Source of the DNA: Candidatus Helarchaeota ASGARD archaeon Hel_GB_B
GTDB lineage: Archaea; Asgardarchaeota; Lokiarchaeia; Helarchaeales; HEL-GB-B
Assembly: GCA_005191425.1 (NCBI GenBank)
Contig: SUPR01000014.1
Coordinates: 16,638 to 48,637, forward strand
Direction of reading: 5' to 3'
Length of the DNA: 32,000 nucleotides
The notes beneath the pieces were generated by a model that did no database searches, was not told the origin of the DNA, and saw nothing but the letters and a program-made list of their open reading frames with translations. The position numbers were made by a program, and so were the translations under genes. This document shows, piece after piece, positions 25,923 to 29,438 of the stretch; the stretch's first letter is position 1; each line of letters starts with the position of its first letter.

Positions 25923-27284
25923 CTATGCATACCTCGTAGCTGCTAAAAATCTTTCAATATAATAAAGAGAAATTTGACCACCAGGACTATTGAATATATA
26001 ATCAAAAGCATGACCAACAAATGGAAATTCAATTAAAATAGCTGGATTTGTAGCATTAGCGTCATATGCATCTTTTAATTCCCGAGACTGCTCGACAGGT
26101 ACTAATTCATCGTTTTCTCCATGTAAAAGTAAAATCGGTGGTGCATTCGAATCTACCATAGTAACGGGTGATATCAAATTATTAAAACTTGTATTTGACA
26201 AATCTCCTCCAAACATTTCTTTCATCAATTCAATTGGATTACCTATTAGTCCTAATAAAGGGTCATTAATCATATACATTAAATCCGCGAAATTAGAAAC
26301 CCCATAAAACGGAATTAGACCTTTGATTGTAATATTCTCGGTTGGAAAAATAGACCTGTATGTATTATTCCAACCAATGAAACATTCAGTTAAATGACCA
26401 CCTGCAGAATTTCCTGTTATATAAACACAAGATAAATTAACCTTGTATTGCGAGGCATTACTCACTAAGAAATGCGTGAAATTTCCTAATACTTGGTGAA
26501 TTTGTTCTAGTACCGAATAACTCTTATTTGTAAGCTGTCTGCCTAATAGACCTTGTACCCATCCCAATGTGTCGTCTAATTTTGTATTTCCTATTGTCAT
26601 GTTCGGAAAATGTGCCAGTCCATATTGTATATCAAAAACTACATAACCTTGATGTGCTAAATATTTTGACGCTTGAGGTCTGTTTTCAGGAAATCCCTTA
26701 TTTCCAATAATCCAGCCTCCACCATGAATATTTATAATTGTTGGGAATGGTCCTGTACCATGTTTTGGACAATAATAATCAAATTTAAATACATCATTAT
26801 AAATCGGAACTTTAAGATATGGTATGTCGTAAGTAACATTGCAATCAAATGATTCATAATTGTTATAAAGCTTCCAGAAATCAAAAGGTGTCTTCATAAA
26901 TTTAGATTTTAATTCTTGGGGAATTTTGTCCATGTAGTTTGCACCAAACACTTGAGCAAATTGGGCATTTCCATCTATAATTGGTTTTTGAGTCCCTGCA
27001 ATTAACGGTAATGAATTTAATGAAACTACAACTAACCCAAAACAAATTGGGACCAGCCATAATTTACGCTTTTTTCCATGAAGACGAGTCATTATTAAGA
27101 TAATTATTGGATAGAATAAAATTGAATAGCAAGCTAGTGCCGGAAATAAGCAATTGACAAGAGTACTAAATATTGTAAACAGTTTTCCAAAAACTATTAA
27201 AAGTCCAGTGTATAGACCCCAGAGTAAAATTAAGTATCCCAGTATCAATAAAAAATATTTTAAAATTTTTTTTATGAGACTCAT
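25923..27284 (-). CDS. Membrane-anchored alpha/beta hydrolase (HSL-like esterase/lipase)
   Basis: HGGGW oxyanion hole, GNSAG nucleophile, HGENDELVP (Asp), GHAFD (His); three N-terminal TM helices. Confidence 0.88.
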   Translation of the reverse strand: MSLIKKILKYFLLILGYLILLWGLYTGLLIVFGKLFTIFSTLVNCLFPALACYSILFYPIIILIMTRLHGKKRKLWLVPICFGLVVVSLNSLPLIAGTQKPIIDGNAQFAQVFGANYMDKIPQELKSKFMKTPFDFWKLYNNYESFDCNVTYDIPYLKVPIYNDVFKFDYYCPKHGTGPFPTIINIHGGGWIIGNKGFPENRPQASKYLAHQGYVVFDIQYGLAHFPNMTIGNTKLDDTLGWVQGLLGRQLTNKSYSVLEQIHQVLGNFTHFLVSNASQYKVNLSCVYITGNSAGGHLTECFIGWNNTYRSIFPTENITIKGLIPFYGVSNFADLMYMINDPLLGLIGNPIELMKEMFGGDLSNTSFNNLISPVTMVDSNAPPILLLHGENDELVPVEQSRELKDAYDANATNPAILIEFPFVGHAFDYIFNSPGGQISLYYIERFLAATRYA

Positions 27285-27746: not shown

Positions 27747-29438
27747 TTAGGATATTAAATTTAAAGCATCTTTTAAAATGTCTTCGTGGTCAAAAGCTAA
27801 GTCAGTGTTTTCAATTTCTTTTAAAGGTAATATTTCTACGCGAGTAGATTCATCACTACATTTAAGATTAGAGAAATCACCTTTTACAATACATAAAAAT
27901 GCAGTTGTGGCTACAGCACCTCTTGGATCACGTCCAATTCTATCATATAAGCCAACTTTCCGCTTAATTATAACATCTAGCCCTGTTTCTTCTTTAACTT
28001 CTCGTATTACTGCTTGTCTTGGAGTTTCTCCTTTCTCTATAAAACCTCCAGGAAATGCATAATATCCAGCATATGGCGGATATTTACGTTTAACTAAAAC
28101 TATATGCTCCTTATCTTTGTCTAATATAATTGCATCAACTGTCCTTCTAAATTTCTTACTGATTTCTACTACTCTAATCTTCATATAATATAAAGACACA
28201 TACATTAATACTGTTGCTAAACAAATTGAGATAATGATTTGCAGCCAAAAAATAAACTGATTTCCTGAATATAGGGCATTCATACCACTATCTAGAGCCA
28301 ATGCAATATCTGAGAGAATACCTATACCAATTAAAAGATTTAATACCTTCATTCCACGTTGCGTCTTTTTTTGGTTCTCTTCATTTTTTTGTTGATATAC
28401 TACATACATAGATTCTTGAATTATAGAAAATTTATTATCGATTCTATTTAAAAGTTGATTTAAATTAAATTCATCAATCAAGTGTTTTAGCACTTTGGTA
28501 AAATGCTGTCTTCTATTATAATTCAATTCATTATAAAATGAGCTCATTTGTGTCTGAATTATCCCTCTTAATAGTGTTAGGTCTTTAATTTTCTTCTCGA
28601 TTATGTTTAAGTCCATAAAACTTTTTAAAATGAAAAGGGCATCTAATGAATTATTAAATGCCATTAAAGCAAATACAATTGCCCTAATTTTAGCCGTTGG
28701 TATTAAAACATTTGAAATTATATATGAATCAAAAAATTGTTCAAAATTTTCGGGTGCCATATATATAAACCCAGAATTTCTTCTTATAAAATGGAGTTCT
28801 GATAGTCTATTAGATAGATTTTGTTTAACTCTGTTTTTATATAATTCATCAGAATAATCTGACCAATGTCCTGAATATATTTCGATCCATTTTCCAAGAT
28901 ATTTTCTGTATTTTTCAATATTTTCATTAGACCATTTAAGGTCTGGTGGACTCATTTTATTTGAAGTTAAAAAAATATAAATTGGACTTTCAACATCGAA
29001 AAATAAATATTTTTTACGGACTTTTGATGCATATTTCTTTAATTCGTTTAAAACGATAATTGGAATTTGTTGAATTAAAATTGGTTCTATTAAATTTTTT
29101 TTATCTGGGTCATTTTTGTAATATTCTACTTCAAATTCTAAATAACCTAATGTATTATACTTAATCCCAATATTTTCATTTTTAAATGGGAATGATTCTA
29201 TTAATGTTTCCCATTTACCCTTTATCGAAAAATTTTTTCCCATCTCTTTAATTTGTTTAATTTTTTCCTTATCCAAAAATGCCTTCTTTAAATCGTTATC
29301 AGTTATATTATTTAATTTATTTATAATAATATTCTCTATTTGATTGATGCTTTCTTCTGCATTAATATAATCTTTATTCCAGATAACTGAGATAAACCAA
29401 TATTCTTTATTATAAATAAATTTAACACCGTCTTGCAT
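27747..29438 (-). CDS. CorA-like 2-TM membrane protein fused to a C-terminal Nudix (ADP-ribose pyrophosphatase-like) hydrolase
   Basis: Long helical stalk, then TM1 MKVL...SGMN and TM2 ending YYMKIR. Perfect Nudix box GFIEKGETPRQAVIREVKEETGL (27978-28046) plus RDPRG and LAFDH. Confidence 0.8.
   Translation of the reverse strand: MQDGVKFIYNKEYWFISVIWNKDYINAEESINQIENIIINKLNNITDNDLKKAFLDKEKIKQIKEMGKNFSIKGKWETLIESFPFKNENIGIKYNTLGYLEFEVEYYKNDPDKKNLIEPILIQQIPIIVLNELKKYASKVRKKYLFFDVESPIYIFLTSNKMSPPDLKWSNENIEKYRKYLGKWIEIYSGHWSDYSDELYKNRVKQNLSNRLSELHFIRRNSGFIYMAPENFEQFFDSYIISNVLIPTAKIRAIVFALMAFNNSLDALFILKSFMDLNIIEKKIKDLTLLRGIIQTQMSSFYNELNYNRRQHFTKVLKHLIDEFNLNQLLNRIDNKFSIIQESMYVVYQQKNEENQKKTQRGMKVLNLLIGIGILSDIALALDSGMNALYSGNQFIFWLQIIISICLATVLMYVSLYYMKIRVVEISKKFRRTVDAIILDKDKEHIVLVKRKYPPYAGYYAFPGGFIEKGETPRQAVIREVKEETGLDVIIKRKVGLYDRIGRDPRGAVATTAFLCIVKGDFSNLKCSDESTRVEILPLKEIENTDLAFDHEDILKDALNLIS

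Follow-up and report, generated by a model that had tools for sequence, protein, structure and literature searches.

The window analysed here is a 32,000-nucleotide stretch of contig SUPR01000014.1 from the Helarchaeota genome Hel_GB_B. Its minus strand encodes a 563-residue protein in which a soluble module and two transmembrane helices (TM1 and TM2) are followed, after a basic linker, by a Nudix domain; this protein is considered here as a candidate nucleotide-controlled membrane effector. Its features are listed in Table 1, and the start codon of the open reading frame (ORF) agrees with the N-termini of homologues in the alignment. An earlier note on this DNA described a soluble region of about 360 residues, two transmembrane helices, a GMN triplet, an unbroken Nudix box and the motifs RDPRG and LAFDH; all of these are found where it placed them. 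In hydropathy and charge analysis, basic residues precede TM1 and follow TM2, while the ten-residue loop between the helices contains none. The N- and C-terminal soluble parts should therefore lie in the cytoplasm, and the suggestion that the Nudix domain faces the cytosol fits this charge distribution.

Table 1. Features of the gene in the window (window positions) and positions of the three-gene module in related Asgard genomes (positions within each locus)
Feature	Position	Strand	Residues	Basis or remark
Whole gene	27747..29438	-	563 in total	ATG start; stop codon 27747-27749
Cytoplasmic N-terminal module	28353..29438	-	1-362	AlphaFold2 models, fold matches; no Pfam family
Parts of the N-terminal module			about 1-227; 229-274, 277-307, 311-323; from 326	alpha/beta domain; long helices; stalk running into TM1
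Most conserved block	28758..28889	-	184-227	candidate ligand or gating site
TM1	28287..28352	-	363-384	hydropathy; starts MKVLNLL; conserved Asn367, Gly373 and acidic Asp377
Short outside loop	28257..28286	-	385-394	contains the GMN triplet; differs in sequence and length among homologues
GMN triplet	28278-28286	-	385-387	in the TM1-TM2 loop
TM2	28185..28256	-	395-418	hydropathy and flanking charges; ends YY, then basic linker MKIR..KKFRR
Nudix domain, NadM/NrtR (ADP-ribose) type	27771..28151	-	430-556	Pfam PF00293, E 4.9e-22
Nudix box GX5EX7REUXEEXGU	27978..28046	-	465-487	unbroken; E471, R479, E480, E483 and E484 intact
RDPRG motif	27918..27932	-	503-507	common to 2yyh, 3i9x and 2fml
LAFDH motif	27786..27800	-	547-551	common to 2yyh, 3i9x and 2fml as (L/V)FDH
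Three-gene module	L107:5507-11728; L137:18-6242; L109:11839-17931	L109: -		related Asgard genomes

Residues 1-425 alone match 388 proteins in a word-seeded search; these stem from Loki-, Hel-, Thor-, Hermod- and other Asgard metagenome-assembled genomes. Among the best 120 matches, 119 are 557-596 residues long and carry PF00293; the sole exception (P0109) is a 390-residue partial protein without it. A further 80 loci are present in species-representative genomes, nearly all of them labelled Promethearchaeota (Asgard). An exhaustive hidden Markov model (HMM) search finds only 105 clusters among 1.84 billion representatives, including Nudix-less forms of about 400-440 residues. The module is present in 36 of 201 sampled genomes of the phylum, mainly in the window's own class. 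The family is a group of Asgard-restricted membrane proteins which was previously unnamed; public annotation calls its members 'NUDIX hydrolase' or '8-oxo-dGTP diphosphatase' only.

A fused reading frame of this kind could arise if separate membrane-protein and Nudix genes were joined by mis-assembly or by a lost stop codon, and the existence of Nudix-less relatives would suit such an artefact. However, those relatives are distant members from other Asgard lineages, while the identical fusion, with the same short linker, is seen in many samples and lineages, on hundreds of contigs that are independent of one another. The comparative data refute the artefact, whose probability is negligible; the fusion is genuine, more than 380 homologues of about 560 residues combining this N-terminal part with a Nudix domain. 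The earlier note had proposed a search of other genomes for the same architecture, and that architecture proves to be conserved across Asgard lineages. The readable contexts of the Nudix-less relatives are Asgard-type contigs. A eukaryotic origin for these relatives is ruled out, as their contigs are gene-dense and archaeal, carry Heimdallarchaeota annotation, and have Arf/Rag GTPase genes and a trp operon as neighbours.

The C-terminal domain is of the ADP-ribose type. Its best NCBIfam models are NadM-Nudix (5.8e-14), which describes NadM-type nicotinamide mononucleotide adenylyltransferase/Nudix proteins, and the ADP-ribose-responsive repressor NtrR (2.2e-11). Sequence and fold matches in the PDB include the Aquifex, Listeria and Enterococcus proteins 2yyh, 3i9x and 2fml, Shewanella NrtR with ADP-ribose (3gz8), and the NadM-Nudix ADP-ribose pyrophosphatases 2qjt and 2qjo; Foldseek against Nudix structures gives TM-scores by target of up to 0.84. 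Conservation was counted in 88 full-length homologues, comprising clade A (58), clade B (17) and 13 basal genes. The five residues E471, R479, E480, E483 and E484 are kept in 57-58 of 58 clade A genes, 15-16 of 17 clade B genes and 10-12 of 13 basal genes. Among NrtR proteins, ADP-ribose pyrophosphatase activity correlates with an intact Nudix signature, whereas a degenerate signature is associated with a purely sensing role (PMC2330246). Because the box is near-invariant, the kinship is with NadM and NrtR, and signature and activity correlate in NrtR, the domain most probably hydrolyses a compound that contains ADP-ribose, its predicted substrate. Pfam, NCBIfam and PDB folds thus agree with the earlier claim of an intact ADP-ribose-type Nudix domain and place it in the NadM/NrtR type.

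The N-terminal module matches no known family by sequence. A Pfam scan of the whole protein at E<=1 returns NUDIX alone, with neither CorA (PF01544) nor any family for the N-terminal part, and a PDB sequence search with the family profile finds no match outside the Nudix part. In AlphaFold2 models, with a predicted local distance difference test score (pLDDT) of 81 for the full protein and 76.7 for residues 1-428, an alpha/beta domain is followed by three long helices and by a stalk helix continuing into TM1, after which come a very short loop and TM2. This arrangement resembles CorA. A cluster in the ESM Atlas of which 60% of members carry PF01544 aligns over 323 residues (TM-scores 0.60/0.65, root-mean-square deviation (rmsd) 4.6), and a 'CorA-like protein' cluster is among the neighbours found with a protein language model (0.92). 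Matches in the AlphaFold DB are a 'CorA-like Mg2+ transporter', DUF155, MJ0711 (E 1.7e-8, TM-scores 0.47/0.60) and MJ1566; a Pfam scan gives no sequence match to the MJ0711, MJ1566 or DUF155 models.

Foldseek of the N-terminal model against the PDB gives nothing below E 1e-3. In a second look at the PDB with VIA-align, Thermotoga maritima CorA chains occupy 11 of the 13 top rows and the CorA-family protein CmaX one of the other two. These CorA matches (e.g. 8tmj_D, Z 8.5, rmsd 6.5, 227 residues aligned between model residues 10 and 419; 4i0u_D, Z 8.0, rmsd 7.7, 228 aligned) have Z 7-8.5 and rmsd 6.5-8 Å, values that helical proteins can reach simply by a similar arrangement. The top match to an unrelated protein reaches Z 6.3 over 70 residues. 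When 48,161 chains are compared with VIA-align, the soluble domain of Campylobacter jejuni CorA (8zah_A, Z 8.7, rmsd 2.5, 112 aligned) appears among many helical matches, and by itself it does not decide the matter. A four-copy complex prediction of residues 229-428 scores 0.09 against a mark of 0.42 and is counted neither for nor against. The elements of the CorA fold, namely the alpha/beta domain, a stalk continuous with TM1, two transmembrane helices and termini inside, are all present in the predicted models, with moderate scores.

Comparison with canonical CorA at the sequence level is negative. Narrow (A2) and broad (A3) family profiles align collinearly with six Asgard CorA proteins in hhalign; these alignments are non-significant, with P 0.08 and 0.064. 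Canonical Asgard CorA proteins show YGMNF..MPE. The columns of the GMN triplet in the 88 homologues hold A/S/T/G, L/F/S/I and S/N/G/T, and they are also unconserved in a set of 36. On this alignment the triplet is a chance feature, private to the window's protein, and the argument of the earlier note from MKVL...GMN fails for that reason. Neither a conserved GMN or MPEL nor a significant profile match is found, and the profile check of the N-terminal part which the note suggested does not connect it with CorA. The CorA-likeness which the note ascribed to the N-terminal part holds for residues 1-428 as a fold match (ESM Atlas, VIA-align, AlphaFold DB) and does not hold as a sequence match (Pfam, hhalign). 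On the predicted models and their moderate scores, the protein is concluded to have CorA architecture without belonging to the CorA Mg2+ channel family.

This bears on the idea that the protein is a true CorA-type divalent-cation (Mg2+/Co2+/Zn2+) transporter tuned by its Nudix domain, replacing a canonical CorA which this genome lacks. The fold would suit such a role. Moreover, PF01544 is absent from the window's genome (93.7% complete) and from the other genome of the genus, while 23 of 31 genomes searched (the window's genome and 30 relatives) contain it. In addition, the closest homologue of the window's protein, at locus L023 (59% identity), adjoins two MgtE genes. Against this, GMN and MPEL are unconserved, the loop differs from one homologue to another and the protein does not resemble CorA in sequence; the window's genome encodes MgtE (C96:16314-17312); and many genomes carry both a canonical CorA and a CorA-fold-Nudix protein. 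The MgtE adjacency is confined to one locus, none being seen in 89 others. There is no support for a role in Mg2+ transport, and a cation transporter is improbable. The two MgtE genes (L023:4370-5535), on a Helarchaeota contig, are adjacent to each other, half-size (191 and 197 residues) and divergent from the family gene.

The N-terminal module is conserved more strongly than the Nudix part. The block at residues 184-227 has the pattern W..YSGxWxDYS..LY..R...NLSNRLSELHFIRRNSGFIYM, with a dozen invariant polar or aromatic residues. Y188, W192, D194, N207 and E214 are invariant in 88 of 88 homologues; in clade A the same is true of R203, S209, N210, R211, H216, R220 and N221, which are almost invariant in clade B and the basal rows. 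The block is also retained in Nudix-less relatives. AlphaFold is least confident at this most conserved stretch of the family, with pLDDT values of 36-55 and low confidence at residues 184-214. The combination of strong invariance, retention without Nudix and low model confidence makes the block a candidate ligand, gating or interface site; such low confidence in the most conserved stretch is unusual and suggests a site which becomes ordered only with ligand or in the oligomer. In TM1, Gly373 is present in 84 of 88 homologues and an acidic residue (D/E377) in 84 of 88; a membrane-embedded acidic ring at 377 would suit a cation path.

TIR genes are linked to one clade of the family. Two loci already showing TIR genes prompted a survey, in which a TIR HMM built from 20 Asgard TIR_2 hits was run on the 80 loci (1.22 Mb). 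It finds 17 TIR ORFs in 12 of the 80 loci, compared with a genomic background of about 1.4 per Mb. A TIR ORF lies within 1 kb of 13 genes, 12 of which belong to one clade of 17. In a tree of 88 proteins this TIR-linked clade B, the sister clade, has support of 100 and a long stem; three of the five members that lack a TIR neighbour are on contigs under 6 kb. TIR adjacency is thus found for 12 of 17 sister-clade genes and for L048, and not for the window gene. One genome (G022) has only three TIR hits in 3.9 Mb, one of them abutting the family gene, and in another (G171) two of three TIR hits flank it.

The typical module has three co-directional genes, encoding in order a small protein with four transmembrane helices (4-TM), a WD40-TIR protein and the CorA-fold-Nudix protein. 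The small protein has 139-151 residues (about 146), the motif FKEAEWAMGQALV and no Pfam family; it has no homologue in the window. The WD40-TIR partner is a WD40-repeat protein of about 1190-1230 residues with a C-terminal TIR domain, and the gaps between its gene and the CorA-fold-Nudix gene are 51-173 bp. In other loci the TIR genes are convergent or divergent and encode LVIVD-TIR, shorter WD40-TIR or zinc-ribbon-TIR proteins. L048, which branches deepest, has two TIR genes and a SIR2-TPR gene as flanking genes. In assembly GCA_016933055.1 (L048:8880-10209 and L050:1-1048), both family copies are within a few kb of SIR2_2-TPR genes, and one copy also follows a VapBC pair.

In two loci (L109:9989-17333 and L090:5470-9656) both paralogues are found tail to tail between NadA and a hexapeptide transferase, and WD40-TIR precedes the clade B copy only. 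The copy linked to TIR has the look of an insertion, or of a tandem duplicate, at the ancestral locus. At L106 the TIR module occupies the same NadA slot without the other paralogue, and the sister genome (L124) has a clade B gene without TIR. The window's genome itself carries a WD40-TIR gene at a contig edge (C130:1-1528, L055), by which it is cut; this gene shows homology along its length to the TIR partner of the clade B gene at L127 (36% identity over 499 residues, E 3e-85).

The window's copy has a different neighbourhood. Around it lie genes for a PF04199 cyclase, a BD-FAE esterase and an arabinofuranosidase, which offer no consistent link. The BD-FAE/Abhydrolase_3 esterase, which has N-terminal transmembrane segments, is directly downstream (25923-27284, minus strand); a BD-FAE/Abhydrolase_3 fragment (L049:6882-7286) also lies downstream of the distant member P0134, which may be coincidence. 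In ten closely related Loki-type genomes the family gene sits between NadA and the hexapeptide transferase, within a larger syntenic block. Adjacency to NadA at these ten loci was considered as a functional link and rejected, as a block shared by close genomes may reflect relatedness only. In the window, Rfam gives no match. Promoter and terminator scans are uninformative, and PADLOC returns the generic Nudix model PDC-S07 alone.

A CorA-fold module with a conserved polar TM1, an intact Nudix domain and the genetic linkage of the sister clade to NAD-cleaving TIR proteins (NADases) together mirror type III CRISPR CorA effectors; for these reasons, the protein is proposed to be a nucleotide-controlled membrane effector whose Nudix domain hydrolyses a TIR- or NAD-derived ADP-ribose signal. 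The probability of this reading is put at about 0.5. The protein would form an oligomeric pore or channel in the membrane, under the control of a nucleotide that contains ADP-ribose. The binding site for this ligand would be cytoplasmic, in the Nudix domain or in the invariant polar pocket at residues 184-227, and binding would change a TM1-lined pore bearing Gly373 and the acidic residue 377. Hydrolysis of the ligand by the Nudix domain would then limit or reset the response. The ligand is probably a TIR product of NAD+, since the sister-clade gene sits in an operon-like module with the WD40-TIR and 4-TM proteins. The window's copy may act in trans with TIR proteins encoded elsewhere in the genome, or may sense ADP-ribose from general NAD+ turnover.

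Several observations weigh against this proposal. There is no TIR match in the 32-kb window, and the nearest relatives (L023, L078, L079 and L059) have no TIR neighbour. The largest clade (58 genes) also lacks a TIR neighbour and occupies a housekeeping-looking block beside NadA. Loci from related genomes are not independent, so that the TIR enrichment is overstated if counted per locus. Homology to CorA is absent at the sequence level (Pfam and hhalign profile-profile comparison), including in the transmembrane region; the loop between TM1 and TM2, whose counterpart in CorA is the filter, varies within the family; and the fold scores are in the range given above, which helical proteins can reach by arrangement. 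An intact Nudix box suits a plain hydrolase as well as a sensor. Pore formation, oligomeric state, channel activity, ligand identity and direction of regulation are predicted parts of the scheme. The window's copy would share the role of the sister clade by homology, which is its only link to TIR. The idea of a nucleotide-gated effector in the earlier note gains independent support from the sister-clade TIR genes, while the copy which the note described has no TIR neighbour; likewise, the comparison of neighbourhoods across genomes which it suggested reveals TIR linkage in the sister clade and none beside the window copy or its nearest relatives.

The same facts can be read another way, in which the protein is a membrane-tethered housekeeping Nudix hydrolase and the CorA-fold module is an anchor, scaffold or regulatory domain with no pore. 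The Nudix domain would clear ADP-ribose or another nucleoside-diphosphate-X compound at the membrane; beside TIR genes, it would be an antidote or negative regulator which destroys the TIR product. Plant NUDT hydrolases, which dampen TIR signalling, are a model for this. Every clade keeps an intact catalytic box, TIR is missing from most loci (the window among them), whose neighbourhoods look like ordinary metabolic ones, and the closest Swiss-Prot fold matches are uncharacterised and DUF155 proteins, with no proven channels among them. However, the N-terminal module is better conserved than the Nudix domain, contains numerous invariant polar residues and is found on its own, with no Nudix domain, in other Asgard lineages; its stronger conservation and its persistence indicate that it has a function of its own. 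A conserved glycine and an acidic residue inside TM1 would also be unexpected in a mere anchor. A housekeeping hydrolase is rather unlikely.

If the effector reading is true, NAD+/TIR signalling gains a new type of effector, a CorA-fold membrane protein with a built-in signal-degrading Nudix domain, and an NAD+/TIR effector system is placed in Asgard archaea. Asgard archaea are the closest prokaryotic relatives of eukaryotes, in which TIR signalling and ADP-ribose-gated TRPM2 matter for immunity. A bolder version, which is tentative, is that the family forms a new class of ligand-gated archaeal channel-enzymes, in which a CorA-fold pore would be opened by a WD40-TIR NAD+-derived nucleotide and closed by its own Nudix domain. 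With the small 4-TM partner, this would possibly be an undescribed Asgard immune or stress-signalling system, and the window's stand-alone copy would be the same effector working in trans, a prokaryotic functional analogue of TRPM2. The family's strikingly invariant cytoplasmic motif is directly testable. Even read conservatively, the analysis corrects a tempting mis-annotation: the protein is no CorA Mg2+ channel, and its public names reflect the Nudix domain only.

Full-text literature searches for CorA with Nudix, Asgard TIR with Nudix, and Thoeris with Nudix find no description of the fusion or of such a TIR module. New in this analysis are the division of the family into clades, the module of three genes, and the finding that the window's copy falls outside the TIR-linked clade.

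Known proteins resemble different parts of this one. MJ0711 and MJ1566 (PF27233, PF27230) and DUF155 proteins (RMND1, Mrx10, RRG) are the best AlphaFold DB fold matches over the whole N-terminal module; in contrast to the present family, they are uncharacterised and have no Nudix fusion. CorA, ZntB and Mrs2 (PF01544) share the cytoplasmic alpha/beta domain, the stalk continuing as TM1, the short outer loop, TM2, the basic C-terminal flank and the termini inside. The family differs from them in having no conserved GMN, no MPEL, no Pfam or profile match, a variable loop and an added C-terminal enzyme.

At the other end of the protein, NadM-Nudix and NrtR proteins (2qjo, 2qjt, 3gz8, 2fml) and Aquifex 2yyh are the best sequence and fold matches. 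In NrtR, ADP-ribose is sensed by the Nudix domain, which governs an output domain fused to it, a design similar to the Nudix-plus-output arrangement here. In this case a membrane module would be the output, in place of an adenylyltransferase or winged-helix DNA-binding domain, and the Nudix box is intact, unlike that of most NrtR proteins. TRPM2, with its NUDT9-homology domain, likewise combines a channel with a cytoplasmic C-terminal ADP-ribose-type Nudix domain, which in invertebrate TRPM2 is still catalytic. TRPM2 is a tetramer with six transmembrane helices per subunit, whereas the present protein is CorA-like with two, and its Nudix domain belongs to another subfamily; the likeness is by analogy only.

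Thoeris-type systems pair a ThsB TIR protein with a signal-activated effector; type II effectors have transmembrane helices and a Macro domain, and SLATT effectors have two transmembrane helices. The sister clade and L048 are similar in that a TIR gene lies beside a membrane protein with an ADP-ribose-recognising domain, and L048 also has a SIR2 gene. In contrast, neither the CorA-like effector fold nor the intact Nudix domain is that of a Thoeris type described so far, TIR is carried by a WD40-repeat partner of about 1200 residues, and there is a conserved small 4-TM third component.

A close parallel in design is type III CRISPR CorA with an NrN or DEDD phosphodiesterase (SAM-AMP signalling; PMC10600005), where a CorA-fold effector is under the nucleotide signal of a neighbouring enzyme. 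There, corA genes adjoin or are fused to genes for signal-degrading phosphodiesterases (PMC10600005); the predicted counterparts here are a TIR generator (in the sister clade), a CorA-fold effector with two transmembrane helices and a Nudix degrader. The differences are that there is no CRISPR context, that the generator would be TIR (with an NAD+-derived product) instead of Cas10, that the degrader is Nudix instead of DHH/DEDD or a lyase, that the sequence does not resemble CorA even in the transmembrane region, and that no gene for a generator lies close to the window's copy. If the effector reading is true, the Asgard family has the same design as CRISPR CorA-NrN, arrived at independently.

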